A DNA stretch of 64,000 nucleotides from Clostridia bacterium. Its GTDB lineage: Bacteria > Bacillota > Clostridia > Oscillospirales > CAG-382. Every line of letters starts with the position of its first letter. Positions within the stretch are counted from its first letter, which is position 1. The position numbers were made by a program, and so were the translations under genes. The notes under the pieces were generated by a model that saw only the letters and a list, made by a program, of their open reading frames with translations, searched no databases and had not been told where the DNA came from. The stretch lies in NCBI GenBank assembly GCA_017516825.1, contig JAFXBC010000037.1:19824-83823 (forward strand), given 5' to 3'. Of the stretch, positions 14,886-49,901 are shown piece after piece.

Positions 14886-14942
14886 GTTTGTATTTCTCCT
14901 GTGATTCGATAATATTTTGCAAGGGTTTCTTACATTGTTCAC

Positions 14943-25301: not shown

Positions 25302-25338
25302 AAAAAACGCACCCGCTTTCAAAGCAAGTGCGTTTTTT
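25302..25338 (-). terminator. Intrinsic terminator of the giant gene
   Basis: aaaaaacgcac...gtgcgtttttt hairpin immediately after the stop at 25343. Confidence 0.6.
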
Positions 25339-25342: not shown

Positions 25343-28300
25343 TCAGGAAAGCTGTTGCATGAGAAGCACGCAGTCGTAGATGGTGAGAACGCCGTCGAAG
25401 TCGAAGTCGTAAAGCGTTTCCGTCTCGGTGTTGCCCACCAGGATGGACATGAGAAGCTCTACGTCAGCTTGGTCGACCACGCCGTTGCCGTCTACGTCGT
25501 AGGCGGGAGTCTTGTCACGGCTTTCCGTCTTGCCGCAGGCGGTACAGGAGCGTTCCTCCTTGCCGGGAGTAGTGTCGTGCCATTCCGTCCATGCGTGGCC
25601 GGTGGGATCCACGTAGTTGTCTACGTAGGTATCGCCACAGTGACATTTGTAGGTGGTAAAGCCTTTCTCCGTGCAGGTGGGTTCTGTTACCACACCTTCA
25701 TGCTTGTGTCCCGTTGCCGCGATGACTTTGGTTTCGTAGTGATCACAGTTTGCACATTCTCTGCGTTGCTCGCCGTTCACGGTACAGGTTGCTTCTTTGG
25801 CAGTCGTCCACTCGCCGTAAGTGTGTCCGGTTGCAGGAGTTTTGTCCGCTACGTAACTATCACCGCAATGACAGGTGTACGTGGTGTAACCTTGTTCGGT
25901 ACAAGTAGGATCCGTTACCACGGCGGTGTAGCGGTGAACGTGTTCCAATTTGGGAAGGATTTCTTCCTTGATCTCTCCGCAGGTTGTGCAGGTGAAGACC
26001 TTGGTGCCCGTGGTATCTTCCGTGGGCTCTTGGGTTACTACGCCTCCGTCCCACGCGTGCCCGGTCGCCGGGGTGTAATTCCCAACGTAATTGTCACCGC
26101 AATGGCAGGTGTAGGTGACGTAGCCCTTCTCCGTGCAGGTGGGGTTGGTGACCACGCTGTCGTAGTCATGGCCGGTTGCGGGAACTTTGTCTGCTACGTA
26201 GGTGTCGCCACAATGACAAGTGTAAGTCGTGTAACCGTCCTCGGTGCAAGTGGGCTTGGTGATCGTTGCTTGGTAGGAATGACCTGTGGCAGGAATGTCT
26301 TTGGTTTCGTAATGATCGCAGTTCTTGCAATCTCTGCGTTCTGTACCGCCATCGATACAGGTTGCTTCCGTGACAGTCTGCCACTCGCCAAAGCTATGTC
26401 CGGTTGCAGGAACTTTGTCTGCAACGTAGCTATCACCGCAAGCACAGGTGTAGGTGGTATAGCCTTCTGTGGTACAAGTGGGTTTCGTTATGGTTGCTTC
26501 ATACCGATGGACGTGATCCAGGGTGGGGATGACCTCCGTCTTGGTCTCGCCGCAAACGGTACAGGTGTAAAGCTTGGAACCCTCGGCTTCTTCAGTAGGC
26601 TCTTTGGCCACAACGCCTCCGTCCCAGGTGTGTCCGGTTGCAGGGGCCTTGTCTGCAACGTAACTATCGCCGCAATGACAAGTATAGGTTGTGTAACCGC
26701 CTTCCGTGCAAGTGGGTTTTGTTACCGTTGCTTGGTAATCGTGTCCCAACGCGGGAACCTTGTCCGCAACGTAGCTATCGCCGCAACGGCAGGTGTAGGT
26801 GGTATAGCCCTCTGTGGTACAGGTGGGTTTCGTTACCGCTACTTCATACCGATGGACGTGATCCAGGGTGGGGATGACCTCCGTTCTGGTCTCGCCGCAA
26901 GCGGTACAGGTGTAAAGCTTGGTGCCCTCGGTCTCTTCGGTAGACTCTTTGGTCACCACGCCTCCGTCCCAGGTGTGTCCGGTCGCAGGGGTCTTGTCTG
27001 CAACGTAGCTGTTACCACAATGACAGGTGTAAGTGGTAAAGCCTTCTGTGGTACAAGTGGGTTTGGTTACCGTTGCTTGGTAATCGTGTCCCAATGCAGG
27101 AACCTTGTCCGCTACGTAACTATCACCGCAATGACAGGTATACGTGGTAAATCCTTCTGTGGTGCAAGTGGGTTTCGTTATGGTTGCTTGGTAATTGTGT
27201 CCCAATGCGGGAACTTTGTCCGCAACGTAAGTATCGCCGCAACGGCAGGTGTAGGTGGTATAGCCCTCTGTGGTACAGGTGGGCTGTGTCACTGTTGTTT
27301 CGTACCGATGGACGTGATCCAGGGCGGGGATGACCTCCGTTTTGGTCTCGCCGCAAGCGGTACAGGTGTAAAGCTTGGTGCCCTCGGCTTCTTCAGTAGG
27401 CTCTTTGGTCACCACGCCGCCGTCCCAGGTATGTCCCAATGCGGGAACCTTATCTGCAACGTAACTGTCGCCACAATGGCAAGTGTAGGTCGTGTAACCT
27501 TCCGCCGTGCAGGTGGGTTTTGTTACTGTTGCCTTGTAACTATGCCCTGTTGCAGACATGACTTTGGTCTCGAAGTGATCGCAGTTTGCACAATCTCTAC
27601 GCTGTTCACCGTTGGCCGTGCAGGTAGCTTCCTTGACGGTTTCCCAATTGCCAAAGCTGTGTCCTGTTGCAGGAGTCTTATCCGCCACATAACTATCACC
27701 GCAATGACAGGCATACGTGGTGTAACCTTCCGCCGTGCAGGTGGATTTTGTTACTGTTGCCTTGTAACTATGCCCTGTTGCAGACATGACTTTTGTTTCG
27801 AAGTGATCGCAATTCTTGCAATCTCTGCGTTGCTCACCGTTGGCGGTGCAGGTTGCTTCTTTTGTAGTTGCCCACTCTCCGAAGCTATGACCTGTTGCGG
27901 GAACCTTATCTGCCACGTAACTGTCGCCACAATGACAAGTGTAGGTTGTGTACCCTTCTGTCGTGCAAGTAGGTTTGGTAACTTTTGCTTGATAGGAATG
28001 ACCTGTTGCGGGAATGTCTTTGGTTTCGAAGTGATCGCAGTTCTTACAATCCCTGCGTTGCTCACCGTTGGCGGTACAGGTGGCTTCTTTCGTGGTCGTC
28101 CACTCGCCAAAGGTGTGACCCTTTGCAGGTACCTTATCTGCCACGTAACTATCGCCGCAATGACAAGTATACGTCGTATAACCTTCTGCTGTGCAGGTGG
28201 GTTTTGTCACAACGGAAGTGTAACTGTGTCCCGTTGCCGCGATTGTTTTCGTCTCGAAGTGATCGCAGTTTGCACAATCTCTCCGCTGTTCGCCGTTCAC

Positions 28301-31300
28301 CGTACAAGTTGCTTCTTTTGTGGTTGCCCACTCTCCGAAGCTGTGTCCCGTTGCAGGAGTTTTGTTTGCCACGTAACTATCGCCGCAATGACAAGTATAC
28401 GTCGTATAACCTTCTGTTGTGCAAGTAGGTTTCGTTATCGTTGCCTTGTAGCTGTGCCCGGTTGCGGGAATTGCCTTTGTTTCGAAATGATCGCAATTCT
28501 TGCAATCTCTGCGTTGTTCACCGTTGGCGGTACAAGTTGCTTCCTTGATAGTCGTCCACTCTCCGAAGCTATGACCCGTTGCGGGAACCTTATCTGCAAC
28601 GTAACTATCGCCGCAATGACAAGTGTAGGTGGTAAATCCTTCTGCTGTGCAGGTAGGTGCCGTTACGGTTGTTTTGTAGCTGTGACCGGTGGCGGCGATG
28701 ACTTTGGTTTCGTAGTGATCGCAGTTTGCACAATCCCTGCGTTGCTCGCCGTTGGCGGTACAAGTTGCTTCCTTGGTAGTCGTCCACTCGCCGAAGGTGT
28801 GACCTGTTGCGGGAGTCTTATCTGCCACGTAAGTGTCGCCACAATGACAAGTGTAGGTTGTATACCCTTCTGTCGTGCAAGTGGGTTTTGTTACTGTTGC
28901 CTTGTAGCCGTGACCCGTTGCAGGGATGATTTTGGTTTCATAGTGATCGCAGTTCTTGCAATCTCTGCGTTGCTCACCGTCTGCGGTACAGGTTGCTTCC
29001 TTGGTAGTCGTCCACTCGCCAAAGCTATGTCCTGTTGCAGGAACTATGTCTGCAACGTAGGAATCACCGCAATGACAAGTGTAGGTGGTGTAACCTTCTG
29101 CCGTACAGGTAGGCTTTGTTACGGTCGCCTTGTAGCTGTGTCCGGTGGCGGCGATGACTTTGGTCTCGAAGTGATCGCAGTTCTTACATTCTCTGCGTTG
29201 CTCACCGTTGGCGGTGCAGGTAGCTTCCTTGACGGTTTCCCACGCGCCAAAGCTATGACCTGTTGCAGAAACCTTGTCCGCTACGTAACTGTCGCCACAA
29301 TGACAGGTATACGTGGTGTAACCTTCCGCCGTGCAAGAGGGTTTTGTTACTGTTGCCTTGTAACTGTGCCCGGTTGCGGGAATTGCTCTAGTCTCGAAAT
29401 GATCGCAATTCTTGCAATCCCTCCGCTGTTCACCATTGGCGGTGCAAGTCGCTTCTTCGGTAGTCGTCCACTCTCCGAAGGTGTGTCCTGTTGCGGGAGT
29501 TTTGTCTGCTACGTAGGAATCACCACAATGACAAGTATAGGTCGTGTAGCCCTCTGTCGTGCAAGTAGGTTTTGTCACAACGGAAGTGTAACTATGTCCC
29601 GTTGCCGCGATGACTTTGGTTTCGTAGTGATCGCAATTCTTGCAATCCCTCCGCTGTTCACCATTCGCGGTGCAGGTTGCTTCTTTTGTGGTTTCCCAAT
29701 TGCTAAAGCTATGTCCCGTTGCGGGAACCTTATCTGCAACGTAACTATCACCGCAATGACAAGTGTACGTCGTGTAACCCTCTGCGGTACAGGTGGGTTT
29801 TGTAACGGTTGCCTTGTAGCTGTGCCCCGTTGCCGCCACTTCCTCCGCTACGTAGCTGTCCCCGCATTCGCAGGTATAGGTAGTATATCCCTTTTCCGTA
29901 CAAGTGGGCGGCGTTACGGTTGCGGTGTAGTGACAAATATGGATGGTAAAGCTTTCTTTACGGATGGTGTATCCGTGGGTGACGTGGATGCTGAAGGTGA
30001 AATCGTAAGGAGAAGCATAGGACACCATTTCCACGGTGTAGGATTCCACCATACTGCCGAAGGAGGCTTGGATCCGGTCTTTCAAAAGTTGCAGAGCTGC
30101 TTCCTTCTCCGGCTCGCCAGTAGGATTCCACTCCATCTCTTCGACGGATTGCAGAAATTTATCCACAGGATCCTGGGTATATACAGACGGCTTGAACTGC
30201 AGGGGACTGCTGATGGCCTCCCGGATGATGCTAAGAATTTCTTCATTGACAGCGCCGGTGTACTGGCTGCCCGTGCCGGTGGCGGCGGGGCCGTTTTCTA
30301 CCGTCAATGCGTTGCCAACGTTCAGAGATCCGCCGTCGATATCCAGAACGTGGCTGTAATGATTGATGAGTTCCGAAAGAACCCCCGCGCCCATGAGGTA
30401 ACGTCCCAATTCGTAGGTAAGGTGGGTAGTGTCACGCTCCAGGAGGCAGTAAGCGTTCTTATCGTACAGCTTGGAGGCGCCAAGATAACTGCTCATGGCG
30501 TTTTGCTTGATGGTGGAGGCGTGGATCACAAAGTCGGGCATATTAGGTGTCCCCGCGGCGATGGCCTTCTCAACGTAGGCGATGTTCGCCAGGGATTTTT
30601 CGTATACCTGCTCTCTGCTCAAAACCTCCAGATAGATCTTGTTCCCGTTGCCGTCGTACAGGGCAGAATCCCCGCCGGTGGAGCGGATATCCACCCAGTC
30701 GGTAAACCAGGCGATCTCGGGGGTGCCTTGGCCTTCGGAAACGGTTCTCACCGCTTGGATGAAGGTTGCCAGCCCTGCGGCGAAGGTTTGGGGATCATCC
30801 ACCACGGATTCCATGTAGTCCTGGATGATGATCAGATCGTAGCGGTTGTTCTTCAGACTCTTGTAAGCTCCCGCAGAGTTTTGCAGTGCCTCCAGGTGGG
30901 AACGGTGGGTGGCGTTGATATTGCTGTTCCTGCCGGAATACAAGCCGATACTGCCGATGGTGGCCTTGCTGATGACGAAATCCGTCTCCAGACCTGCGTT
31001 TTGCAGATCCTTAAGGATGGAGGGCAGGAATTCGCTGTAGTCCACCGTGTGGCTGTTACCGATGCAGAGGATCCGCAGGGTCTCCAGGCGGATGGTCAAC
31101 CCCTTTTCTGCGGCGTAAGCGTAGGCAGGGGAATTGAGGTGCATTCGATAGGTCGCCGTTCCGGGCAGTGCCAAGTCGCAGAAGCCGTTGACACCGTCTT
31201 CGATGGTAACGTCGGTAATAGCGTCCATCACCACGTTCCAGGGAACGTCGGATTGCTTTGCGTAGGCAGTCATGGAGCCGTCGCCTTGTAGGCTGAGCTT

Positions 31301-34300
31301 GAACGTGCCTTTTTCTTCGCCGGCGGTGATGCGATAGGTGACGCTTTCGCCGCAGAAGCCGGAGGTCAGATCCCACAGGAATGCCAACGTGCTTTCCGCA
31401 CCGGGAATGGCAGGGGTGTAGTCCGAAAGGTTGTAGGTATTTTGGGGGACGTCTTTCACCAGAGCCAACGCTTCGTACAGGAGAGACGGGCTTGCCGCTT
31501 CTGCATTCTGCAGGGCGCTTTCCAGCTCCGACAGGGCGGGAGCGAGGTGTGCAAGATCCGTGTAGAACATGGTGACCTTGGAAACGGCGGCGGAAATCTT
31601 TCGATAGCCGTTGCCGCGGATCCAGGATTCCGTGGTGTTCAGAGTGGAAGCGGCGTAGATCTCCAAGGGTTCTTTTCGATCCGTTGTGGAGAACAGCACG
31701 GCGTGAACGGCTACTGTAGCCGTGGGGTTGTCGATGCGGATCTCGCTGATCTTATCCATGTTGGTAAGTGTATACTGCCCAACGTAGGAGATGGTTTCGT
31801 CAAAACGAACGGCGTGGATATCGGCTCTGCTTTGATACCATTCGGTAATACTGTAACGCGAGAGCTGATCGTCGGAATTGGTGTAGTCGGGCAGTCGTCC
31901 GTAGTCTTCCATGGAGGAGTTTCCGAAATCATGGAAGATCAGAACGCCGTTTTCCAGCTTATAGGCCAGATGGTCACTGTTTTTCTCCGTGGAGAGGGGG
32001 ACGGGAGACCAGCCGACGGGGATCAAGGGCTCTTTTTCTCCGCACGCCGTGCAGATACCGTTGGAGTAGCTATGCTCCGCGCTCAAAATATATACTGCAT
32101 AGTGTGCTTGGTTGCCCGTCATGGGAACGTTCAGGGCAACAGCACCTGCGGGGGCGGTGACGTAGCCGTTCTTTGCAAACTCTGCGTAGACTACGTCACG
32201 GGAGAGGGTCTGCAGAACGCCGTTTTCGCCAAACCAGGTGATCCGCACGCCGTTGGCGGTACTGCCGTTATCGGGATAAGCCCCAAAAGAGGTTGCCCAA
32301 ATGCGGTCGCCCTCTTTTACGGGGAAGGTGATAGACCAGCTGTCACCTGCGGAGGTATTGCCCCAGCCGGAGGCTGTGTAGTAGATCTTTTCGGGGGTGA
32401 GGGCCTGCCACAGGTTGGTAGCGGGGCAGTATACCTCGGGAAGCTGTTGCAGATGTCCGTCTGCGGTGAACTTGCCCTTGGCGGTGATCACCAGATCCCC
32501 GGTCACTGCGGGAATGGAGATCACACCGTTTTTGTAAGCGGTGGCGGTAATATCCACCCCGCCCATGGTAACGGTAACGGCAAGGTCTTCCCCGGTGAGG
32601 GTTTCTTCAAAAGACTTTCCTGCGGAAATGCCCTTGTAGTAGCCCAGAGAAGCCTTCGCCTGGGAAAGGCTGTGGGTCACGGTGTGAACCACGGTCTCTC
32701 CTGCGGGGAGAACAAAGGTATCGGTGAGCTTTTCCACCACCGCGGCGGTGATGTAGTCCATACCCTCCGCATTGGGGTGGATGTCATCGGGAAGCATCTC
32801 AAAGGTCACGCCGCAATCCTGCAAGGACAGATACTCCACGCCGTAATGGTCGCAAATGGCCTGCACCACGGGGCCGTACTTATCCAGCTTGGCCTGGGTG
32901 ACGTAGGAGGGCATGGGGTAGGAGGTCATGGCCAGGATCTTGGCCTCGGGGTAGAAGTATTGCAGCCGCATGATAGCCGCCACGTAAGCGTCCGCAAAGG
33001 ACTCCCACTTGGTGGCGGTGAGGTCGACTTCGGTGGGTGCGGTAGCGGGATCAAAGCTGCCCAATGCCACGCCGCGGCCCATATCGTTGCCGCCGCCGAA
33101 GAACAGGATCACGTCGGGAGTACCGTTGGAGCCCAGGTTCTTGATACGGGTGATGGAGGCCATGGCCGCATCGGGACCCAGGTCGCCGGAGTTGGTATCC
33201 TGGGTGTTCAATACCTGAGAGCCTGCCCAGCTGTCGTTGATGCCCAGCTTGGCGTTCAATTCTTGAATGGTCTGCATCCACCAGGTGTCGTTCACGTGGG
33301 TGAGCAGATTGTCCTGGGGATAACGGTCTCTGTGATCTAAGTTAAAGCCGTCCGCAACGGGAGTGTACCCTTCAAAGGTGGAGGTGCTGGCGGACAGAAT
33401 GGAGATCACCTTGCCGTCAAAGCTTTCGGGCTTGGGTTCCTGCTTGCCGCATCCGGCACAAGTACCGTTTTGGTAGACGTGGTCGCGATCAAGGAGGTAG
33501 ATTGCGTATTTTTGATCCGCGGAAGGCATGGGAACGTTCAGGGTGATGGCACCTGCGGGAACGGTGATATAGCCGTTCTTTGTAAACTCTGCGTAGACCA
33601 CGTCACGGGCAACGGTTTCCAGTACGCCGTTTTCATCGAACCAGGTAATACGGGTACCGTTTCCGTTTTCGGGCAGGTTTCCAAAAGAACTTGCCCAAAC
33701 CCGTTCGCCCTCCTTCACGGGGAAGGTAACGGAATGCACGTCGGGAGCATTGGAGAACAAGCCCCAGCCATCTACGGTGTAGTAGATGTTTTCGGGGGTG
33801 AGGGCCGTCCAGAGATTGGTCTTCTTGCAAAGATTCTCGGGAAGCTGTTGCAGGTGGCCCTCCAGCAGAGAAGGAGTGCAACCACATCCCGCACAAGCGC
33901 CGTTTTCGTAGACGTGGTCGCGGTTCAGGACGTAAAGCTCGTTATCGTCACTGCCGTTCCACATGGCGACGTTGATGGCGATGGCGCCCTCGGGGGCGAT
34001 GAGATAGCCGCCGTTTGCGGAGAATTCCTTGTAGGTTCCTGCGGGATCCATGGTCTTCACCACGCCGTATTCCCCAAAGAAGGTGACACGGATGCCATTG
34101 GACGTGGCGTGTCCGTTTTCCACCGCCTTGCCGAAGGAGGTGGCAAAGATCTTGTCCCCCGGCTCCACGGGGATGGTGACGGAGGGCACTTCTCCGGAGC
34201 TGTAAATGCTCCATCTGGTGCCGCTGGCGAAGTAATAGGGATCATGCTCCAGAACTGCCCAAAGGTTGGTATCCTTGCAGTATTCCTCGGGCATGGTCTG

Positions 34301-37300
34301 CATATGAGAAGCCAGGTCGTAGAGCTGCCAGACGCCTTTGAGGACTCTTGTCTGAACAATGCCGCAATCTGTACAGACCCGCTTTTCCTGTCCCGCACCC
34401 TCCGGTGTGGGCTTGAAGACGGTTTCCCAGGCGGACCAGGCGTGGCCGGAAACGGTAACGGTCTGATTGGTATAGGGAGAGCTTAAGGTGCCGCTTTGGG
34501 TGTCGCTGACAGCCAGCAGGTCGTAATACTCCCAGGTCAAACTGTCGGAGAGGGAGTAGGTCACTTCCTTGGATCTCCAAATGGGAGAGACCAGGGGAAC
34601 CACCAGGGTCTCGCTGCCGGGGGTGGTGTTGGCGTCGATGGATTCCACGGGGGTAAAGCCGTCCCAGGAGACGAATTCCACGGTGGGCTCCGTCTCGGGG
34701 GCTTCCAGCACGCCCAAGAGGATCAAAGCGTTGCGGACGGACTCTCTGCCGATCTCGTTGTAGCCGATCTGGTTATAGTGGATGGAATCGTGGACTGCCT
34801 TGGGGGTGGTGGGGGTGTACCAGGATTCTTTCTGGGCCACCTGGGTGGTGTAGTCCACTCTGCCGTTTTCGTAATGTGCGTTGAAATAGGCTTCTACGCC
34901 GTTGGTGCCGTCGGGCATCCAGACCCAATCGTCACCGATGTTGCAAACGCCCCAGATGTCGGAAAGGGCGGGATTGTTGATCATCCAATACTGTGCCACG
35001 CGGGGGCCGTTCATACGGAGATCAACAAAGGATTCATGGTAAGCGTAGGAGTTGGTTGCGGTTTGAACGCCGTCGCGGTAGCAGGCGGCGGTGCTTCCTA
35101 CGCGCACGGGGATGATGCCGCCGAATTCAAAGGTGGTGTCTTCGTCAAAGGCCAGATCCTTCTTCAGATTCTCGTGCATGGCAAGATACTTTTCCACGTA
35201 CCACTTGGCGGTCTGGGTTCTGTCGGAACAGCCCTGGCACCAGAAGTATCCCATGTGGGACAGGGTGTAGTGTCCCGCGGCGATCTCTTTCCGCAGAGTT
35301 TCCTGGCAAGCGCCGAACAGCAGAAGGGCTTCCTCGTAGTTTGCCTTGCCCTTTTGCCAGGTGGTGATAGAGGTACCGCCGTGGGCGGCGTTCACCACCC
35401 AGACCTTCTCCCCGGTCTGCTTCACCCATTCGTAGGCAAAGCCGCTGTCGGGACCCATTCGTCCCGCACCCTCCGCGGTCAGGGAGTTCAGAGGATAACC
35501 GCCCAGACAATCGGTGTTGCCGTTGACGTTCAGCAGACTTCCCGGGCCGGTGAGGGCGGAGGGGGCAAAGCTTGTGGCGTTGTTCACCGTCATGGCGGTG
35601 TTGCTTGCGCCGCGGTCGTCCCCGTAGGTGGAATACACCATGCCGTCGGGGCAGACGATGGATTGATTGGGGTCGCCCTCACTGCCTCGCATATTGCTCT
35701 GCCCGATGAGAAGCAGCAGGGAAATGGGAGCGGCCTTGACGGTGACGGTGTAGGTCACGCCGTCGATCTTGACCTTGGCCGTGCCGATGCCCGTGGCGAT
35801 CAGCTTATTACCGTTCAAAGTGATAACAGCGGTGTCAAGAGTACCCTCCGCCACGCCGTAACCCACTTGGTAAGAGGTGGGCACACCTGCGTCGATGATC
35901 TCAACCTCCTTCCCCGTCACGTCGTAACGATCGTCATAGGACAGGGAGAGGGAGGTGTTCTCGTGAATTTCCATCCACAGAATCTGGTTGTTGCCCAAGG
36001 CGAAGCCGGATGCACCTATGTACGGGAATACAAAATCTTTCCCGGAAAGATAACGATTGTTTTGATTTTGGATTGCGCCGTCAATGATAAGAGTTGTGGT
36101 CGAAGACACCCAAACATCGTCAATATAAATGCCGATGGTATTGGTTCCGTCTTCGGTAACAGCATTTCTGAAAGAGTATACGTGGGGCTTGGTCCAGTCT
36201 ATTTTAACCTGGCTTTGTAATACACCATAGTTTTGATACTTCCCGTCTTTATACTCGCCCACAGATAAAACACCGGTGCCCGACTGGCTTTTGAAAATAT
36301 AAAACTGTCCGGCTACACTCGATGCAGCGGTAGAAAGCGCCATAAAGCGTGTGGAATCTTCTGCATAGAAATCGACACGCCATTCTTTGTCATGCTGCAA
36401 AATAATGTTTTCGGCAAGCTTGTAGACTTGTTGCGTGGAGACTGCCTGCTTGAGGGTGTTTTCGGTAAAGCCTGCGCCGCTAACGGAAACAAGCTCGTTA
36501 TCCTTTAACTCAAAACGATAGCTGTTGTAGCTTTCTTTCCCCGCGACAGAAACCGTTTTTCCACCCACGGAAGCAGAAAGCGTACCTCCGCGGAAGCCGG
36601 AAACGGTAAGGTCGTAATAGTGATACTGAGTGCCTTCGGAGAGGGTATACGTTACACTTTTGGATTCGTAGCAAGGATACACGACGGGAACCACAAGAGT
36701 TTCCGAATTTGCGACGTTTGAGGATTTGATTTGCGTTACGCTTTTGTATCCTGTCCAGTCCACGAACTCAACCCGTGTTTGAACATCCGGCTTTTCCTTA
36801 AGCCCAAGGATGTACATTGTGTTCCTTGCCGCTTCACGGCCAACCTCGTTGTACCCTTTTTGGTAATAATGGATCGAGTTCTTGACTTCTGCGGGAGCCG
36901 TAGGCTTATACCAAGCGTCTCCTTGTTTTGTCTGGGTGGGATAATCTATCGTTCCGTTTTCGTAATGGGCTGCGAAATACTCTGCCACGCCGTCGCTTCC
37001 GTCGGGCATTGTGACCCAATCCTGTGCAATCGTCGATACAATGTGAATATCTTCAAGTTCCGGATTATTTGCCATCCAGATCTGAGCGACTCTCGGGCCG
37101 CGCATTTCCAGCTCTTTGAAGGTTGCGAAGAAGGCTTCGGAGCTATCTTCGTAAGTGCCGTGACGATAGCCGACTGCGTTTTCGTGTCCCGCCATTACAA
37201 GAATAATATTTCCGAATTCGAAGGTGACCTTGTCCGTGCTTTCGTTGATGGTTGCATCAAAAGCAAGCGCTTCCTTAAGGGCGTCGTGCATTGCGGTATA

Positions 37301-39772
37301 GCGCTCTACATACCATTCTGCCGTTCGGGTTTCATCGGCACACCCTTGGCACCAATAATAGCCCATTCTGGAAAAGGTATAGTGACCGGCAGCGATCTCT
37401 TTCAAAAGCACTTCTTCGCAAGCGGAGAATAGTGCAACTGCTTCTTCGAAGTTGCTTTGCCCTTTTTGCCAGCTGGAAATGCTGGACGCACCGTGCGCTG
37501 CATTGATGACCCAAACCTTTTCGCCGGTCTGCTTCACCCATTCGTAGGCAAGACCGCTGTCCATGCCATATTTGCCGTTCCCCGCCTCGGTAAGGGAGTT
37601 TACGGGATATTCACCTAACTTCGTATTATTGCCATTGATATTTACGGTGCTGTAAGTACCTGTCAATGCGGAAGGGACGTAATTTCTTGCGTTTTCCACA
37701 GTTAAGCCGGCGTCGCCGACAAGGCCGTTTGCCTTGGCGTAGGTGGAATATACCTGGCCGTTTTCGCAGGCAATAGATTGATTGGCTACGCCAACCATGC
37801 CTTCGGCGTTGCTCTGCCCGATGAGAAGCAGCAGGGAAATGGGCGCCGCCTTGACGGTGACGGTGTAGGTCACGCCGTCGATCTTGACCTTGGCCGCGCC
37901 GATGCCCGTGGCGATCAGCTTGTCACCGTCCAAGGTGACCACAGCGGTGTCAAGAGTACCCTCCGCCACGCCGTAACCCACCTGATAAGAGGTAGGCTTG
38001 CCCGAGTCGATGATCTCAACCTCTTTCCCCGACACGTCGTAACGATCGTCATAGGAAAGGGAGAGGGAGGTGTCCTCACAAACCAGAAGGTATTCCAATT
38101 TACAATCGTTCAGCGGAGCGGAGTCCGTCCCCAGGTAGCCGAAGGAGAAATCCTTCCCGGAGACCCAGTTCGACGTAGTGTTCTGGGCCTTGCTTCCCAC
38201 GAAGTAGTTGTTCATGGGCAGGGCTTCGCCGCCGTCCAGGGACAGGTAGATCATATTACTGCCGTCTGCGGCAATGCGGTTTTCCAGACGGAAGGTGTGG
38301 GTGCCTGCGTCCAAGGCGGAAAGATCCACGCCGTAGTTATCGTATTGAGAACCGCTCCATGCACCGAAGCACAGTTGTCCGCCCTTGGTGCGGGAGAGGT
38401 AGTATTTGCCCACGGTGGCGGTGATGGGTGCGGAGGTCAGGATAGCACCCCGCCAATCTCCGCCGCACTTCCATTCCAGAACCCAGGGACGGTCGTGCTT
38501 CAGCACCATGGGGATGGCCGCTTGGTATCTGCCACCTGTAATCACCCCGTCCGTGACGGTTCCCGCAAGGGCGGTCAGGGCGTTTTCGTCTCCCAAAGAG
38601 CGCAGGGAGGAACCCTCCATTTCCCAGCGGAAGTGCAAGGGGGTGCGGTCTGCTTTTGCAGTGATGACCAGATCACCCGTCACCTTTGAGACGGTAATCT
38701 TCCCGTCGGCGTATGCCGTTTGGGTAATATCCTCGCCGCCCATGGTGACGGTGACGCTAAGGTTGGAATAGCCCGGTTCGGGAGTGAGAGTAGCCTTGTA
38801 AGCCTCCCCCGTGATGGCCGCGGCGGCGGGATGGTCGGTGGTAACTCCATCGTATTCCCCGGTGACCTCCTGCAAGGTCACCTCTCTCCCCAGCATGACG
38901 CTGAGAAGCTCCTCGGAGATCCGATCCATGCCCTCTGCGTTGGGATGGGCGCGCTTGTCACCCATAAGACTATCAAAAATTTCCACGTCCTTGGGGATTG
39001 CCTTTTCCAGATCCACCACGGGGTAACCGAAGTGGGCGGCAACCTCCCAAAGCTGGGCGCTGTATTCCGTGGGCTGTCCCGCGTCGGGATAGCTGTCCCC
39101 GGTGTAGTCCACCTCCCGCCGTGCGGTGGAGGTGATGCAGTAGATCTCCGCTTCGGGGTAGCGGGTAGCGGCTTTGTGCAGGGTGATGGCGTAGGCCTCG
39201 CAGGTGGTGGTGGGCTCGGCGTAGGTATAGCTGCCGTCCCCGTTGGCCTTGATCAGGGCGTCGTAATCCACGTCTGCCGCCTTGCCGTAGGTGTCCTTGT
39301 AGTAGGCAAAGTCGTTGCCGCCGATGTACACCCAGATGATATCCGGCTCTTCTCCCGTGTGGTCGTTGTGGAGGTTCACCGCTCTGTCCTTGTAGGCGAC
39401 GGAGGCCTCTCCCTTGCGGGGCTGCAGAACGCAGGAGCCGCTCCAGGAGTTGTTCACCAGCAGGCGCATATCCAGAACGTCAATGACCTGTTGCCACCAG
39501 GTGTCCTCACGGTAGACACCATGTCTGCCCTCGGTGTAGTAAACGTCATTCTTACCGATAGTGGAGTTGTCCGCCGTATTGTTGGAGACCCCGTCGTAGG
39601 TAGAAGCGCTGTGGCTGAGAATGGAAACGGTCTTCCCGCGGAAAGAATCCACGGAAACCGCTGTCGCTTGCGTCTCCGCCGTCAGCTCTTGTGCCAGTGC
39701 TATGAAAGCATTCAGCGGCAGGGAGGTGACCAGCATCAGCAGGGTGAGCAGAAATGAGAGTGTACGTTTCAT
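25343..39772 (-). CDS. Giant (4809 aa) secreted multi-domain carbohydrate-esterase-like protein with Cys-rich module array and C-terminal dockerin
   Basis: Uninterrupted ORF with GGAGG SD 7 nt upstream and signal peptide MKRTLSFLLTLLMLVTSLPLNAFIALA. SGNH blocks (SILSHSAS/NNSWSGS/GGND/DKRAHPN and SILSASTS/NDSWAGS/GGGND/DDIHPN). Two SASA-type domains (IGQSNAEG..AAHGASSISSW..YWCQGCADE and IGQSNMRG..AAHGGTSITTW..FWCQGCSD). A DUF4886-like LCIGNSHT domain, LamG-like and BspA-like LRR segments, repeats and a dockerin. Confidence 0.85.
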   Translation of the reverse strand: MKRTLSFLLTLLMLVTSLPLNAFIALAQELTAETQATAVSVDSFRGKTVSILSHSASTYDGVSNNTADNSTIGKNDVYYTEGRHGVYREDTWWQQVIDVLDMRLLVNNSWSGSCVLQPRKGEASVAYKDRAVNLHNDHTGEEPDIIWVYIGGNDFAYYKDTYGKAADVDYDALIKANGDGSYTYAEPTTTCEAYAITLHKAATRYPEAEIYCITSTARREVDYTGDSYPDAGQPTEYSAQLWEVAAHFGYPVVDLEKAIPKDVEIFDSLMGDKRAHPNAEGMDRISEELLSVMLGREVTLQEVTGEYDGVTTDHPAAAAITGEAYKATLTPEPGYSNLSVTVTMGGEDITQTAYADGKITVSKVTGDLVITAKADRTPLHFRWEMEGSSLRSLGDENALTALAGTVTDGVITGGRYQAAIPMVLKHDRPWVLEWKCGGDWRGAILTSAPITATVGKYYLSRTKGGQLCFGAWSGSQYDNYGVDLSALDAGTHTFRLENRIAADGSNMIYLSLDGGEALPMNNYFVGSKAQNTTSNWVSGKDFSFGYLGTDSAPLNDCKLEYLLVCEDTSLSLSYDDRYDVSGKEVEIIDSGKPTSYQVGYGVAEGTLDTAVVTLDGDKLIATGIGAAKVKIDGVTYTVTVKAAPISLLLLIGQSNAEGMVGVANQSIACENGQVYSTYAKANGLVGDAGLTVENARNYVPSALTGTYSTVNINGNNTKLGEYPVNSLTEAGNGKYGMDSGLAYEWVKQTGEKVWVINAAHGASSISSWQKGQSNFEEAVALFSACEEVLLKEIAAGHYTFSRMGYYWCQGCADETRTAEWYVERYTAMHDALKEALAFDATINESTDKVTFEFGNIILVMAGHENAVGYRHGTYEDSSEAFFATFKELEMRGPRVAQIWMANNPELEDIHIVSTIAQDWVTMPDGSDGVAEYFAAHYENGTIDYPTQTKQGDAWYKPTAPAEVKNSIHYYQKGYNEVGREAARNTMYILGLKEKPDVQTRVEFVDWTGYKSVTQIKSSNVANSETLVVPVVYPCYESKSVTYTLSEGTQYHYYDLTVSGFRGGTLSASVGGKTVSVAGKESYNSYRFELKDNELVSVSGAGFTENTLKQAVSTQQVYKLAENIILQHDKEWRVDFYAEDSTRFMALSTAASSVAGQFYIFKSQSGTGVLSVGEYKDGKYQNYGVLQSQVKIDWTKPHVYSFRNAVTEDGTNTIGIYIDDVWVSSTTTLIIDGAIQNQNNRYLSGKDFVFPYIGASGFALGNNQILWMEIHENTSLSLSYDDRYDVTGKEVEIIDAGVPTSYQVGYGVAEGTLDTAVITLNGNKLIATGIGTAKVKIDGVTYTVTVKAAPISLLLLIGQSNMRGSEGDPNQSIVCPDGMVYSTYGDDRGASNTAMTVNNATSFAPSALTGPGSLLNVNGNTDCLGGYPLNSLTAEGAGRMGPDSGFAYEWVKQTGEKVWVVNAAHGGTSITTWQKGKANYEEALLLFGACQETLRKEIAAGHYTLSHMGYFWCQGCSDRTQTAKWYVEKYLAMHENLKKDLAFDEDTTFEFGGIIPVRVGSTAACYRDGVQTATNSYAYHESFVDLRMNGPRVAQYWMINNPALSDIWGVCNIGDDWVWMPDGTNGVEAYFNAHYENGRVDYTTQVAQKESWYTPTTPKAVHDSIHYNQIGYNEIGRESVRNALILLGVLEAPETEPTVEFVSWDGFTPVESIDANTTPGSETLVVPLVSPIWRSKEVTYSLSDSLTWEYYDLLAVSDTQSGTLSSPYTNQTVTVSGHAWSAWETVFKPTPEGAGQEKRVCTDCGIVQTRVLKGVWQLYDLASHMQTMPEEYCKDTNLWAVLEHDPYYFASGTRWSIYSSGEVPSVTIPVEPGDKIFATSFGKAVENGHATSNGIRVTFFGEYGVVKTMDPAGTYKEFSANGGYLIAPEGAIAINVAMWNGSDDNELYVLNRDHVYENGACAGCGCTPSLLEGHLQQLPENLCKKTNLWTALTPENIYYTVDGWGLFSNAPDVHSVTFPVKEGERVWASSFGNLPENGNGTRITWFDENGVLETVARDVVYAEFTKNGYITVPAGAITLNVPMPSADQKYAIYLLDRDHVYQNGTCAGCGKQEPKPESFDGKVISILSASTSTFEGYTPVADGFNLDHRDRYPQDNLLTHVNDTWWMQTIQELNAKLGINDSWAGSQVLNTQDTNSGDLGPDAAMASITRIKNLGSNGTPDVILFFGGGNDMGRGVALGSFDPATAPTEVDLTATKWESFADAYVAAIMRLQYFYPEAKILAMTSYPMPSYVTQAKLDKYGPVVQAICDHYGVEYLSLQDCGVTFEMLPDDIHPNAEGMDYITAAVVEKLTDTFVLPAGETVVHTVTHSLSQAKASLGYYKGISAGKSFEETLTGEDLAVTVTMGGVDITATAYKNGVISIPAVTGDLVITAKGKFTADGHLQQLPEVYCPATNLWQALTPEKIYYTASGWGNTSAGDSWSITFPVKEGDRIWATSFGAYPDNGSTANGVRITWFGENGVLQTLSRDVVYAEFAKNGYVTAPAGAVALNVPMTGNQAHYAVYILSAEHSYSNGICTACGEKEPLIPVGWSPVPLSTEKNSDHLAYKLENGVLIFHDFGNSSMEDYGRLPDYTNSDDQLSRYSITEWYQSRADIHAVRFDETISYVGQYTLTNMDKISEIRIDNPTATVAVHAVLFSTTDRKEPLEIYAASTLNTTESWIRGNGYRKISAAVSKVTMFYTDLAHLAPALSELESALQNAEAASPSLLYEALALVKDVPQNTYNLSDYTPAIPGAESTLAFLWDLTSGFCGESVTYRITAGEEKGTFKLSLQGDGSMTAYAKQSDVPWNVVMDAITDVTIEDGVNGFCDLALPGTATYRMHLNSPAYAYAAEKGLTIRLETLRILCIGNSHTVDYSEFLPSILKDLQNAGLETDFVISKATIGSIGLYSGRNSNINATHRSHLEALQNSAGAYKSLKNNRYDLIIIQDYMESVVDDPQTFAAGLATFIQAVRTVSEGQGTPEIAWFTDWVDIRSTGGDSALYDGNGNKIYLEVLSREQVYEKSLANIAYVEKAIAAGTPNMPDFVIHASTIKQNAMSSYLGASKLYDKNAYCLLERDTTHLTYELGRYLMGAGVLSELINHYSHVLDIDGGSLNVGNALTVENGPAATGTGSQYTGAVNEEILSIIREAISSPLQFKPSVYTQDPVDKFLQSVEEMEWNPTGEPEKEAALQLLKDRIQASFGSMVESYTVEMVSYASPYDFTFSIHVTHGYTIRKESFTIHICHYTATVTPPTCTEKGYTTYTCECGDSYVAEEVAATGHSYKATVTKPTCTAEGYTTYTCHCGDSYVADKVPATGHSFSNWETTKEATCTANGEQRRDCKNCDHYETKVIAATGHSYTSVVTKPTCTTEGYTTYTCHCGDSYVADKTPATGHTFGEWTTTEEATCTANGEQRRDCKNCDHFETRAIPATGHSYKATVTKPSCTAEGYTTYTCHCGDSYVADKVSATGHSFGAWETVKEATCTANGEQRRECKNCDHFETKVIAATGHSYKATVTKPTCTAEGYTTYTCHCGDSYVADIVPATGHSFGEWTTTKEATCTADGEQRRDCKNCDHYETKIIPATGHGYKATVTKPTCTTEGYTTYTCHCGDTYVADKTPATGHTFGEWTTTKEATCTANGEQRRDCANCDHYETKVIAATGHSYKTTVTAPTCTAEGFTTYTCHCGDSYVADKVPATGHSFGEWTTIKEATCTANGEQRRDCKNCDHFETKAIPATGHSYKATITKPTCTTEGYTTYTCHCGDSYVANKTPATGHSFGEWATTKEATCTVNGEQRRDCANCDHFETKTIAATGHSYTSVVTKPTCTAEGYTTYTCHCGDSYVADKVPAKGHTFGEWTTTKEATCTANGEQRRDCKNCDHFETKDIPATGHSYQAKVTKPTCTTEGYTTYTCHCGDSYVADKVPATGHSFGEWATTKEATCTANGEQRRDCKNCDHFETKVMSATGHSYKATVTKSTCTAEGYTTYACHCGDSYVADKTPATGHSFGNWETVKEATCTANGEQRRDCANCDHFETKVMSATGHSYKATVTKPTCTAEGYTTYTCHCGDSYVADKVPALGHTWDGGVVTKEPTEEAEGTKLYTCTACGETKTEVIPALDHVHRYETTVTQPTCTTEGYTTYTCRCGDTYVADKVPALGHNYQATITKPTCTTEGFTTYTCHCGDSYVADKVPALGHDYQATVTKPTCTTEGFTTYTCHCGNSYVADKTPATGHTWDGGVVTKESTEETEGTKLYTCTACGETRTEVIPTLDHVHRYEVAVTKPTCTTEGYTTYTCRCGDSYVADKVPALGHDYQATVTKPTCTEGGYTTYTCHCGDSYVADKAPATGHTWDGGVVAKEPTEEAEGSKLYTCTVCGETKTEVIPTLDHVHRYEATITKPTCTTEGYTTYTCACGDSYVADKVPATGHSFGEWQTVTEATCIDGGTERRDCKNCDHYETKDIPATGHSYQATITKPTCTEDGYTTYTCHCGDTYVADKVPATGHDYDSVVTNPTCTEKGYVTYTCHCGDNYVGNYTPATGHAWDGGVVTQEPTEDTTGTKVFTCTTCGEIKEEILPKLEHVHRYTAVVTDPTCTEQGYTTYTCHCGDSYVADKTPATGHTYGEWTTAKEATCTVNGEQRRECANCDHYETKVIAATGHKHEGVVTEPTCTEKGFTTYKCHCGDTYVDNYVDPTGHAWTEWHDTTPGKEERSCTACGKTESRDKTPAYDVDGNGVVDQADVELLMSILVGNTETETLYDFDFDGVLTIYDCVLLMQQLS
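25346..25501 (-). other. Type-I-like dockerin module (C-terminus of giant protein)
   Basis: YDVDGNGVVDQADVELLMSILVG...DFDFDGVLTIYDCVLLMQQLS: two Ca-binding-loop plus helix segments (DxDxDGxxxxxD). Confidence 0.7.
25502..29925 (-). repeat. In-frame tandem array of ~36-39-aa cysteine-rich modules (~39 modules, ~4.4 kb)
   Basis: Hand count gives 22 type A (TKPTCTxEGYTTYTCHCGDSYVADKxPATGHS), 12 type B (GEWTTTKEATCTANGEQRRDCKNCDHxETKxIxATGHSY) and 5 type C (GHTWDGGVVTKEPTEEAEGTKLYTCTACGETKTEVIPxLDHVHRY). The A+B pairs form ~228-nt DNA repeats. Confidence 0.85.
35696..35962 (-). repeat. 267-bp intragenic direct repeat, copy 2 (Big_2-like segment)
   Basis: Nearly identical by eye to 37811-38077 (offset 2115 bp). 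Encodes ...YDDRYDV(S/T)GKEVEIID.G.PTSYQVGYGVAEGTLDTAV.TL.G.KLIATGIG.AKVKIDGVTYTVTVKAAPISLLLLIGQSN. Confidence 0.8.
37811..38077 (-). repeat. 267-bp intragenic direct repeat, copy 1
   Basis: See 35696-35962. Confidence 0.8.
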
Positions 39773-39816
39773 ATAGAACCTCCGATTTCAGGAGAATTAA
39801 TTACGAGATTTCCTAT

Positions 39817-39845
39817 ATTGTATCACCAAGCGCCAAAAAATGCAA
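39817..39845 (-). promoter_or_regulatory. Candidate sigma-A promoter of the giant gene (TTGCAT-17-TACAAT)
   Basis: Minus strand has TTGCAT (39845-39840), a 17-nt spacer and TACAAT (39822-39817). Confidence 0.5.
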
Positions 39846-39928: not shown

Positions 39929-41479
39929 TCAAGTCTTTGCCTGTACGATCTGCAGAAGCAAAACGCAGTCGTAAACGGTGAGAACGCCGTCGCCGTCCAA
40001 GTCAAAAAGGGTGTCGGACTCCGCGTTGCCCACCAGGAGCTCCAGAAGAAGCTGTACGTCGGCTTCCGTGGTGACGCCGTCCCCGTCGACGTCGTAAGCG
40101 GGAGCCTTGTCCCGGGTCTCCGTTTTCCCGCAGAGGTCACAAACACGCTCCTCCTTGCCGGGGGCAACCTCCGTCCATTCCCCGAAGGGATGGTCGATCA
40201 CGGGGGAGTAGTCTTCCGCATAGCTGTGGCCGCAGGTCTCGCAGGTGTAAAGAGTGTAGCCTTCCTCGGTACAGGTGGGGAAGAACACCTCCGTGGTATA
40301 GCTGTGACCGAAGGCGGGCTGTACCTCACCTTGATAGCTCATCCCGCAAGCACAGGTGAAGACGGTGTAGCCGTCCTTGGTGCAGGTGGGAGGGGTGACG
40401 ATGGATTCGAAAATATGGATATGCTCCACGGAGGGATCGTACTTTTCCGGGAACAGGGTGGGATACTCCAGCATCACCTTTCCGTTGCCGTAGAAATCCC
40501 CCTGGGCAACGTGGGATTGGTTAAAGGTGATCTTGGTGAAATGCTCGGGGACGGATTCCCCGCCCACCAGGAAGAAATCGTAGAAAATACCGCTGGTCTG
40601 GTCGTCCCAGGTGACGTCAACGGCGTACCAGTTGCCGTCCTCCATCTGCACCGCGTTCCAGGCGTGAGCTTCTGCGCCCTTGTCGGTGTAGCCCGCACCG
40701 GTGACGATGATGCAGGGGATATTCATCCGATTGCAGAACAGCTTGAAGGCCTTTGCGTAGCCCTCACAAACGGACAGCCCCTCCAACAGAGGGCCCACCA
40801 CGTTGTGAGCGTTCTTGCCGTCTACGTAGCTGACGGTTTGGCAAAGATGATCGTGGAAAAATTTCAGCTCGTCGTAGACGGAATATTCGGGATAGAACTC
40901 CAGGGAAGACTCCAGGGAGGTCATCACGTCCAACACTTGGGTCAGGGCTTGCCGGTAGCTCTCTTTGTCAAAATTGCCGGAGCTTTCGGGGTTGCACTGA
41001 ATGGTGATGGAGGAGACTTGGTTCCCCGCTATGGAAAGGCTTCCTCCGTATTGCACGCCCTTCATCCAGAACAGCAAGGGGTCGTCCAGCGAGGCGGCGG
41101 CGTAGGCGGGAAGCACCTGGGAGGCGATGAAGTCCATGACCTGCTGCTGGAACTCCTGGGTAGGACCCTCCGCGGGCAGGATGAAGGTGGGAATCTCCGA
41201 GGTCTCCAGGGTGAAGGCGGGATCTCCGGGCAGGGTGTTGCACACCGCCTCGTAGATGGTTCTCTGGAGATCGCTTTCCAGCTGGTCGTAATACGAATGA
41301 GAGGTGAAGGCCGCGTCCGTGTCGATGGGCTCAACGGTTCCGTAGGCCAAACGCTCCGAGGCGTAGGCCGTATCCAGGTGATATACCCTTTCCCCCTCTG
41401 CAAAAACGGGCAGAGATTGGAACAGCATCACCAAAAGCAAGCAGACTGGGAGAAGGCGGACTTTGAAAAAACGTTTCAT
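39929..41479 (-). CDS. Secreted transglutaminase-like (papain-fold) protein with Cys-rich modules and dockerin
   Basis: Start moved to ATG 41479 (MKRFFKVRLLPVCLLLVMLFQSLPVFA) with AAGGAG SD. Core CEGYAKAFKLFC...AHAWNAV...YAVDVTWDD is the Cys-His-Asp transglutaminase-core pattern. The C-terminus has 2 type A and 1 type C module plus dockerin YDVDGDGVTTEADVQLLLELLVG...DLDGDGVLTVYDCVLLLQ (39932-40096). Confidence 0.7.
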   Translation of the reverse strand: MKRFFKVRLLPVCLLLVMLFQSLPVFAEGERVYHLDTAYASERLAYGTVEPIDTDAAFTSHSYYDQLESDLQRTIYEAVCNTLPGDPAFTLETSEIPTFILPAEGPTQEFQQQVMDFIASQVLPAYAAASLDDPLLFWMKGVQYGGSLSIAGNQVSSITIQCNPESSGNFDKESYRQALTQVLDVMTSLESSLEFYPEYSVYDELKFFHDHLCQTVSYVDGKNAHNVVGPLLEGLSVCEGYAKAFKLFCNRMNIPCIIVTGAGYTDKGAEAHAWNAVQMEDGNWYAVDVTWDDQTSGIFYDFFLVGGESVPEHFTKITFNQSHVAQGDFYGNGKVMLEYPTLFPEKYDPSVEHIHIFESIVTPPTCTKDGYTVFTCACGMSYQGEVQPAFGHSYTTEVFFPTCTEEGYTLYTCETCGHSYAEDYSPVIDHPFGEWTEVAPGKEERVCDLCGKTETRDKAPAYDVDGDGVTTEADVQLLLELLVGNAESDTLFDLDGDGVLTVYDCVLLLQIVQAKT

Positions 41480-46385: not shown

Positions 46386-46675
46386 GAAGGTGAAAAAGGG
46401 GAAAGGGTAGCGCGCAGGTCGGATGGCGGAAAGTCGTTTCGTAGCGTAACGCTTTGCTATGGAGACGAACCGAGGAAGGGCACAAATGCGACCATCTCTC
46501 CCGCACAGGGTACGGTGAAAAAACGCTTTATGCCAACCTCATTGCGCGGAAGTATGGCTTGATTTTAGTCCATGCATCATGCGTAATCGTAGGGGCGATT
46601 CACGAATCGCCCGTTCGGGCGCCCTCCCGAACCAAAGGCAACCCTTCAAATCTTTCCCGAAAGGAGTCCTATCCC

Positions 46676-48508: not shown

Positions 48509-48521
48509 AAGGAGGTTTCCC

Positions 48522-49880: not shown

Positions 49881-49901
49881 CACGATAAAAGGAGGTTTCC
49901 C

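Follow-up and report, generated by a model that had tools for sequence, protein, structure and literature searches.

A 64,000-nucleotide stretch of DNA from a Clostridia bacterium of the order Oscillospirales (contig JAFXBC010000037.1 of assembly GCA_017516825.1, forward-strand positions 19,824 to 83,823; hereafter the window) contains a gene of 14.4 kb whose product, a secreted protein of 4809 amino acids (aa), combines five esterase-type domains with an array of 39 Cys/His-rich modules and a C-terminal type I dockerin. The open reading frame (ORF) lies at window positions 25343..39772 on the minus strand, as do all features of the gene given below. We consider it probable that the protein is a cohesin-tethered, long-stalked array of glycan de-O-acetylases, with plant hemicellulose or pectin as its likeliest substrate. 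The domain identities, the conservation of the catalytic residues and the dockerin can be read directly from profiles and alignments; it is a proposal that the domains are active esterases, that the accessory modules bind glycan, that the stalk is rigid and binds metal and that the dockerin tethers the protein to a cohesin, and the substrate is likewise proposed.

Five esterase-type domains

Two of the five domains are of the GDSL/SGNH type. SGNH-1 (aa 42–300; 38873..39649) has a predicted nucleophile at S55, a GGND block at aa 151 and H276, and SGNH-2 (aa 2116–2350; 32723..33427) has S2129, GGGND at aa 2226 and the pair D2329/H2332. The corresponding Pfam matches, at aa 47–283 and aa 2121–2343, both exceed the gathering score: Lipase_GDSL_2 reaches 53 bits on SGNH-1 and 50.9 bits on SGNH-2 (cutoff 32.9), and Lipase_GDSL_lke reaches 39.6 and 58.3 bits, respectively (cutoff 29.2). 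The closest solved relatives of SGNH-2 are PDB 4m8k (E 3.6e-20) and 4nrd (E 1.3e-15), and the alignment with 4m8k pairs S2129 with its GDS serine. In 186 GDSL domains of the family the block I Ser and the N.SW, G.ND and HP...GM blocks are at least 90% conserved, and both copies in the giant protein possess all of them.

Two further domains belong to the SASA family. SASA-1 together with a C-terminal extension spans aa 646–1078 (36539..37837), with S654 in a GQSN motif and H968, the latter in an NSIH motif in which Asn replaces the usual Asp; SASA-2 (aa 1351–1795; 34388..35722) has S1359, D1662 and H1665, and thus a DSIH motif. The Pfam SASA profile matches at aa 646–837 with 39.2 bits and at aa 1351–1543 with 60.2 bits (cutoff 24.8), spanning only profile positions 3–159 of 226. 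The Ser of GQSN and the distal His are invariant in an alignment of eight SASA sequences. A preliminary description of this DNA, made by reading the letters alone, had proposed all four of these domains, and each of the assignments stands above the Pfam gathering score.

The fifth esterase-type domain (aa 2898–3280; 29933..31081) is more divergent. The preliminary description had called it a DUF4886-like SGNH domain, and the part of that label which holds is the fold and its catalytic residues. In a ten-sequence alignment S2907 (in LCIGNSHT), D3114 and H3117 (D-T-T-H) are invariant. An AlphaFold2 model of the domain with the region preceding it has a predicted local distance difference test score (pLDDT) of 73 overall and mostly above 85 in the esterase part, and the top PDB matches of this model in Foldseek are SGNH hydrolases: 4s1p (E 5.5e-4), rhamnogalacturonan acetylesterase 1deo, TesA (1u8u), the carbohydrate esterase family 2 (CE2) structure 2wao and PAF-AH (3dt6). 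An SGNH fold with a catalytic Ser and a D-x-x-H motif is therefore moderately, not strongly, supported. The DUF4886 profile (PF16227), on the other hand, scores only 18.1 and 16.1 bits where 26.7 would be needed, and it matches three of ten homologues, with E-values of 0.004 or worse; since the score is sub-threshold, we do not file the domain under DUF4886. A PDB sequence search with the fifth domain and the LRR-like region before it returned no match.

Immediately N-terminal to the fifth domain lies a beta/helical region that ends in a segment resembling the leucine-rich repeats (LRRs) of the BspA type (aa 2585–2897; 31082..32020). Foldseek superimposes this segment on the BspA-type LRR structure 4h09 over 78 columns with a root-mean-square deviation of 2.4 and a probability of 1.00. 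The LRR assignment was likewise part of the preliminary description and is partly borne out: Pfam LRR_5 (PF13306) matches one homologue (E 2.6e-5) and has no match in the giant protein itself. The order of LRR-like segment followed by SGNH-like domain upstream of the Cys array is moderately supported by the structural model. For the whole region from aa 2585 to 3285, 11 homologues are detectable, several of which stand alone as proteins of ~790 aa that have both a signal peptide and a dockerin.

To judge from the alignments, all five esterase-type domains retain the nucleophilic Ser and the general-base His, as had been anticipated. This conservation bears on the idea that the protein is mainly an adhesin, in which the esterase folds would be catalytically dead or serve as binding modules and the function would be attachment to particles or cells. 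The LRR-like segment, the many beta modules and the very long putative stalk would suit such a role, as would the absence of a triad Asp from SASA-1, and CE2 esterases can double as binding modules (PMC2661963). However, Ser and His are kept not only in the five domains but also across their families, and the GDSL family keeps its oxyanion-hole blocks, so that we regard a mainly adhesive protein as very unlikely and favour five active esterases.

A Cys/His-rich array that leads to a dockerin

The head of the protein is followed by 39 Cys/His-rich modules of 37–39 aa each (aa 3281–4757; 25502..29932), a count estimated at about 39 in the preliminary description and now exact. The modules are of three types. 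Type A conforms to H-x10-C-x9-C-x-CG and type B to H-x12-C-x9-C-x2-C-x-H; type C lacks the first Cys and has C-x2-CG, and the module after it begins with HVH (HxH). Among the modules of 120 homologues, HxH comes next after 18 of 34 modules that lack the first Cys and after 10 of 363 modules that possess it, an odds ratio of ~40 that is uncorrected for relatedness. This covariation is the pattern expected if one metal ligand had been swapped for another (Cys3His to Cys2His2), and a disulfide explanation is less natural because each module has three Cys. Homologous modules give scattered sub-threshold matches to many zinc-finger and zinc-ribbon families in Pfam. No dedicated Pfam or NCBIfam family exists for the module, and a PDB sequence search with the array was negative. 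Taken together, the modules are best interpreted as putative Cys3His/Cys2His2 metal knuckles that would form a stalk.

The array is old and selected, not the product of a recent expansion or an artefact. The A+B unit of 228 nt matches at only 78% in DNA between tandem copies, and across the array units are 85% identical in protein versus 79% in DNA, with differing codons at 42% of the conserved residues; such codon divergence beneath a conserved protein indicates selection on each module. A collapse of repeats during assembly was considered and rejected, as exact repeats of at least 55 nt are absent from the entire gene.

The Cys module also occurs in more than 1230 proteins, together with SLH, cohesin, dockerin and LRR_5 domains. 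Two small surface proteins, P0143 and P0250, possess a signal peptide, a cohesin, four to five Cys modules and a C-terminal transmembrane helix. As far as domain order can tell, the modules in these relatives hold the position of a spacer between cohesin and membrane anchor or SLH domain.

The array ends in a type I dockerin (aa 4758–4809; 25346..25501) in which two calcium-binding repeats, DVDGNG and DFDFDG, are readable. The Dockerin_1 profile (PF00404) scores 34.4 bits on the C-terminal fragment (aa 4758–4808), well above the cutoff of 22.9, and a marginal 21.4 bits in a scan of the whole protein; the dockerin seen by the preliminary reader is thus borne out on the fragment.

An intact gene with its own expression signals

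The gene is real and intact, and its product is read as secreted. The ORF comprises 4809 codons from an ATG start with zero internal stops, is the longest in the window and contains no N or other ambiguous base; the probability of a random frame of this length without a stop is ~5e-101. A Shine–Dalgarno sequence, GGAGG, is located 6 nt 5′ of the ATG at 39772 (39779..39783). The N-terminus, MKRTLSFLLTLLMLVTSLPLNAFIALA|QE, reads as a Sec-type signal peptide of 27 residues (aa 1–27; 39692..39772), with MKR followed by a hydrophobic core and a cleavage site at ALA|QE. Further upstream, TTGCAT and TACAAT at a spacing of 17 nt, together with a TG extension, form a putative promoter (39817..39845), which was read by eye and remains under the threshold of a consensus scan. 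Directly after the stop codon an intrinsic terminator, consisting of a hairpin and a U-run (25302..25338), has a predicted folding energy (dG) of −21.4 kcal/mol and a z-score of −5.7 compared with shuffled sequences. All the elements that the preliminary description had listed, that is, an uninterrupted frame, promoter, Shine–Dalgarno sequence, signal peptide and terminator, could therefore be located, the promoter being plausible but sub-threshold and the signal peptide inferred from the translation.

The signals of the adjacent genes delimit the transcription unit on both sides. The upstream gene has its own terminator with an 11-bp stem at 39898-39873, 5′ of the putative promoter, and a perfect TTGACA-17-TATAAT promoter at 25250-25222 serves the next gene downstream. 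Given the upstream terminator, the gene's own terminator and the separate promoter of its downstream neighbour, the giant gene is monocistronic. An operon with the solute-binding lipoprotein gene downstream was rejected, as a terminator and the perfect promoter lie between the two.

Accessory modules and the W domain

The regions between the esterase-type domains are occupied by beta-rich modules. A comparison of the protein with itself reveals two duplicated cassettes. The first consists of an SGNH domain and a module of ~77 aa and is found at aa 42–377 and aa 2116–2436; the second consists of two beta modules and a SASA domain, and its copies at aa 378–1078 and 1079–1795 are 55–69% identical over most of their length. 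The module after SGNH-1 (aa 301–377; 38642..38872) is 57–67% identical to that after SGNH-2 (aa 2351–2436; 32465..32722), and almost every homologue has a counterpart after its SGNH domain. The first beta module of the SASA cassette (aa 378–560; 38093..38641) is duplicated at aa 1079–1265 (35978..36538) and recurs in homologues. The second (aa 561–645; 37838..38092) is 59–69% identical to its copy at aa 1266–1350 (35723..35977) and always stands immediately N-terminal to SASA in homologues. These three modules had been labelled Ig-like, LamG-like and Big_2-like, in that order. The labels found no support: no Ig, LamG or Big_2 family of Pfam matches at E-values up to 10, and the sub-threshold hits of the post-SGNH module to Big_12 (E 0.017) and Big_6 (E 0.086) are the only hints. 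The modules themselves are nevertheless conserved and duplicated. NCBIfam has nothing for any segment of the giant protein.

A further building block is a Trp-rich domain of about 150 aa, here called the W domain. Copies 1 and 2 occupy aa 1796–1955 and 1956–2112 (33437..34387) and are recognizable both as internal repeats and by the family profile; copy 3 occupies aa 2437–2584 (32021..32464). The presence of three copies, first noticed by eye, is confirmed by self-comparison, in which they are 41–68% identical to one another. An AlphaFold2 model of copy 3, built on an alignment of 38 sequences, is of high quality (pLDDT 90.9; predicted template-modelling score, pTM, 0.84) and mostly beta with one helix. 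Among predicted viral structures the best matches to this fold have E-values of 8e-4 to 7e-3 and TMq values of 0.44–0.48; these lie in accessory domains from several kinds of phage protein, namely GDSL/SGNH esterases (among them those of the Clostridium phages CPD2 and CPS1) and receptor-binding and other tail proteins such as tail fibres, neck-passage proteins and distal tail proteins. This resemblance is a weak hint that the W fold may recognise glycans.

Neither Pfam nor NCBIfam has a model of the W domain. When 1.84 billion cluster representatives were searched exhaustively with the family profile, only 245 W-domain proteins (clusters at 50% identity) were found; the family is thus small and, by the names of the sources, confined to uncultured Clostridia/Oscillospiraceae. 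The family alignment has an invariant Cys at position 25 and an invariant His at position 143, and the domain usually ends in C-x2-CG, like half a Cys module; these residues may form a metal site that staples the domain.

A recurrent and plastic architecture

The giant relatives of the protein emerged from this same W-domain search. About 40 W-domain representatives are at least 1500 aa long, and in most of these, between two and five domains of the SGNH, SASA or DUF4886-like kind are joined to accessory modules like those described above; altogether, dozens of proteins of 2–5.4 thousand aa from public metagenomes bear two to five esterase domains of these kinds. One of them, P0260 (3927 aa), has a domain order nearly identical to that of the window protein, with 24 Cys modules and a dockerin. 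The SGNH-Ig-W and Big2-SASA-W cassettes (named here by the original labels of their modules) are found in hundreds of Clostridia/Oscillospiraceae proteins, many of them with a dockerin. P0260 and the ~40 giants imply that the architecture is a recurrent, plastic theme and not a one-off. The preliminary reader had not recognised the architecture as described, and in the literature searched, by keywords and by peptide strings of the modules, no description of the architecture, the W domain or the Cys/His stalk was found; it is not unique, however, given the nearly identical order in P0260.

Another relative is a homologue of 5036 aa at a locus, L002 (JAZPZV010000026), of the metagenome-assembled genome (MAG) JAZPZV01, which bears the label Eubacteriales bacterium. 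The identity between its gene and that of the window is mosaic: two blocks (window 33882-35962 versus L002 5768-7848, and window 29786-33429 versus L002 9108-12757) share 94–96% DNA identity and the remainder 68–76%, and the flanks of the giant gene are also only 68–76% identical. This pattern resembles what an exchange of cassettes, or gene conversion, among paralogues or strains would leave. The L002 homologue lacks SGNH-1 and has a canonical DUF4886 domain (278.6 bits) at the place of the window protein's W2. Its gene is one of four consecutive dockerin genes, which also include those for a 1288-aa S8 peptidase and for a cohesin protein. The latter, at L002:20797-22479 and two genes from the giant gene, is a 560-aa protein with a Pfam Cohesin match of 36.1 bits, one Cys module and a dockerin near-identical to that of the L002 giant, and is a candidate adaptor scaffoldin. 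Cohesins thus exist in the lineage beside such giant genes. This protein came to light by reading the locus; a search with an alignment of three cohesins recovered only unrelated MAGs.

Comparison with the relatives also bears on whether the gene could be an assembly artefact, that is, a chimera or a product with the wrong number of repeats from short-read metagenome assembly. In favour of an artefact, the gene is known from one contig, its relatives vary in length (5036 aa in L002, 3927 aa in P0260), and its identity to L002 is mosaic. Against this stand the lack of long exact repeats and the 78% match of the tandem units, the frame that is intact across 4809 codons, and the domain order and cassette boundaries that independently assembled relatives share. 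An artefact is accordingly most improbable, and a genuine, plastic gene is the preferred explanation.

Genomic neighbourhood

The gene directly upstream (39929..41479, minus strand) encodes a secreted transglutaminase-like protein of 516 aa (Transglut_core) with three to four Cys modules and a dockerin of its own (Dockerin_1, 28 bits). It shares its terminal cassette with the giant protein (…PGKEER.C..CGKTE.RDK.PAYDVDG.G…), and this second dockerin protein had not been recognised in the earlier reading. Instead, the giant gene had been described as flanked by four solute-binding-type lipoproteins. Four paralogous lipoproteins of ~510 aa, weakly similar to SBP_bac_8, do exist at 10079-14990 and 23618-25168 on the minus strand, and the one at 23618-25168 adjoins the giant gene downstream and is 28–30% identical to two of the others (11.7-14.9 kb); the remaining three, however, are 10–15 kb away on the same side, and the other flank is held by the dockerin protein. 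None of the neighbouring ORFs scanned matched a permease family of ATP-binding cassette (ABC) transporters, and the four lipoproteins may for this reason be orphan binding proteins.

Elsewhere in the window, a gene at 6325-8538 (minus strand) encodes a protein of 737 aa with many LRR_4/LRR_8 repeats and an EndoS-type LRR match, probably a surface protein. Three tandem paralogues at 46454-51656 (plus strand) have near-identical N-termini (MKKFILIAVCLLLVALLTLGVCMY…), are seemingly membrane-anchored and have no Pfam match. The housekeeping genes FTHFS, FolD and Asd are located nearby, and the FTHFS of the window is at best 65–66% identical to those of the species representatives sampled. The contig is a 66.7-kb scaffold in the ENA assembly ERZ28653856, labelled XIEF21-1_SAMN15830032, a sample label that we read as that of a metagenome study of the ruminant gastrointestinal tract.

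Proposed mechanism and substrate

Under the scheme that we favour, the cell would export through the Sec pathway a modular 'poly-esterase' with a catalytic head of ~3300 aa. The head would comprise five serine esterases of the SGNH superfamily from three sequence families (two of the GDSL/PF16255 type, two divergent ones of the SASA type and one DUF4886-like), and the interleaved beta-rich modules, including the three W domains, would bind glycan. The stretch of ~1480 aa between head and dockerin, made of 39 metal-stapled mini-modules, would act as a long, protease-resistant stalk. With the type I dockerin plugged into a cohesin on a cell-surface, scaffold or adaptor protein, the stalk could project the esterases tens of nanometres into the substrate (a length that is estimated, not computed). 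There, esterases of complementary positional specificity would remove O-acetyl groups, or acyl groups like them, that stand in the way of glycoside hydrolases (GHs). The 'glycan de-O-acetylation' proposed in the preliminary description would follow from family membership, and acetylated plant hemicellulose or pectin is favoured because of the gut habitat and because dockerin-linked esterases of carbohydrate esterase type are classically fibre enzymes.

Several observations weigh against this scheme. The catalytic sites are not uniformly canonical, SGNH-1 having the spacing D-x3-H rather than D-x2-H, and SASA-1 having lost the triad Asp that SASA-2 keeps. Sequence searches of the PDB, with a single sequence as well as with the eight-sequence profile, gave no relative of the SASA units, and the nearest solved structures of the GDSL domains, 4m8k and 4nrd, are uncharacterised structural-genomics proteins; as no domain has a characterised close relative, any assignment of substrate is a guess. 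The W domain has no significant fold match in the PDB (best Foldseek E 0.075, template-modelling score, TM, below 0.3). Scans of the 64-kb window found no cohesin, GH or recognised carbohydrate-binding module (CBM), nor does the giant protein itself contain a GH or a recognised CBM. Finally, the neighbours are atypical of fibre degradation, being transglutaminase-like and beta-lactamase-like here and including an S8 peptidase in L002. As regards the cellulosome-like machine suggested by the preliminary description, a cohesin protein is encoded two genes from the homologous giant gene of the related MAG and none is present in this window; a tethered mode of the type used by cellulosomal carbohydrate-active enzymes is plausible, and the protein would be at most a candidate member of a cellulosome proper, as the window showed neither a cohesin nor an association with GHs or CBMs.

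Bacterial surface polymers remain a serious alternative: the targets could be O-acetylated peptidoglycan, teichoic acids or capsular and cell-wall polysaccharides, and the role could be antagonism, scavenging of necromass or remodelling of the cell's own envelope. Such targets would agree with the resemblance of the W fold to accessory domains of phage proteins that recognise bacterial surface glycans, with dockerin neighbours that are a transglutaminase-like protein (of cysteine-peptidase fold) here and an S8 peptidase in L002, with the beta-lactamase-like gene nearby and with a window devoid of GH and CBM genes. Yet the structures that the W fold matches are themselves predictions and the similarity is low (TM below 0.5), dockerin-bearing esterases of the SASA/CE6 and GDSL types are by established knowledge classically plant-cell-wall enzymes (PMC6282417, PMC7110780), and the sample label suggests a ruminant gut, an environment that would be rich in acetylated xylan. 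On this evidence we consider microbial polymers a distinctly less likely target than plant polysaccharides, albeit one to be taken seriously.

Host sialoglycans are possible but still less probable. The SASA domains would in that case be sialate 9-O-acetylesterases, and the array would unmask mucin or other sialoglycans of the host; the Pfam family is indeed named for sialic-acid-specific acetylesterases, and the DNA comes from a gut metagenome. Nonetheless, the match leaves a large part of the SASA profile uncovered, the domains are highly divergent and without a PDB relative by sequence, and PF03629, as is generally known, also takes in the acetyl-xylan esterases of CE6. In addition, the window contains no genes for a sialidase or for the catabolism of sialic acid. 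Acetylated plant hemicellulose or pectin thus remains the substrate that we favour.

Comparison with known systems and significance

Cel5C-CE2 of Clostridium thermocellum is a cellulosomal enzyme with a CE2 esterase module (PDB 2wao; PMC2661963), one of the structures that the fifth domain matches in fold. Like this enzyme and the SGNH hydrolases of Ruminiclostridium cellulolyticum (PMC12774918), the giant protein joins a secreted SGNH-fold esterase to a terminal type I dockerin within a modular polypeptide. Dockerin-bearing cellulosomal esterases, however, have one esterase domain, sometimes with one GH, in a protein of ~0.5–1 thousand aa with a short Pro/Thr linker, whereas the giant protein has five esterase domains of three families, no GH or recognised CBM, and a stalk of 39 modules for a linker. 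The CE6-CE1 acetyl/feruloyl esterases encoded in polysaccharide utilization loci (PULs) of Bacteroidetes are similar in that esterase domains, including one of the SASA/CE6 type, are fused, and cooperation of the fused activities on decorated xylan has been proposed (PMC7110780, PMC8040265); these enzymes differ in having two catalytic domains, in being lipoprotein or periplasmic parts of PULs and in lacking dockerin, stalk and W domains.

Comparable as well are the SGNH-fused ScaH-like scaffoldins of ruminococci, which likewise combine SGNH modules with cohesin–dockerin parts in Oscillospirales gut bacteria, and in which organisms sequence divergence hides many cohesins (bioRxiv 10.64898/2026.02.05.704116). 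The ScaH type has a cohesin and a single SGNH domain, in contrast to the five esterase domains and no cohesin of the giant protein. The PF16255-type GDSL proteins of gut Bacteroides (4m8k, 4nrd), in which the GDS serine is aligned, are the closest solved relatives of SGNH-2, but these are single domains of ~230 aa and uninformative on substrate. As huge secreted repeat proteins of uncultured bacteria with dockerin-like elements, the dockerin-type giants of Omnitrophota and the RCC1-type giants of Oscillospiraceae (bioRxiv 10.1101/2023.11.21.568195) are comparable in kind; they differ in exceeding 30,000 aa or consisting of a single repeat type, their domains are unrelated and none is multi-esterase. 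Five esterase domains, the W domain and the Cys/His stalk are thus found in none of the closest known systems, and the chemistry of the protein is expected to be conventional.

More tentatively, and on balance with less confidence than the scheme above, the protein and its relatives could represent a new class of poly-esterases, tethered to the surface and of long reach, from uncultured Oscillospirales-like Clostridia of the gut. The W domain would then be a new carbohydrate-binding fold, the zinc-stapled mini-modules would be rigid stalks that also hold cohesins off the membrane or S-layer, and the five complementary esterases would work as one array.

Microbial breakdown of plant fibre and host glycans is greatly slowed by the acetyl and other acyl groups that decorate them, and known deacetylases are single- or double-domain enzymes. 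If the proposed function is correct, tethered proteins with up to five esterases would amount to a different solution to this problem and may provide enzymes for the deacetylation of biomass. The analysis also exposes two abundant, unannotated building blocks, the W domain and the Cys/His stalk module, in a family that is already present in public data without annotation. Characterising both would improve the annotation of the many giant surface proteins now listed as 'hypothetical' in Clostridia of the rumen and gut, and would clarify how uncultured Clostridia build their surface enzyme systems.

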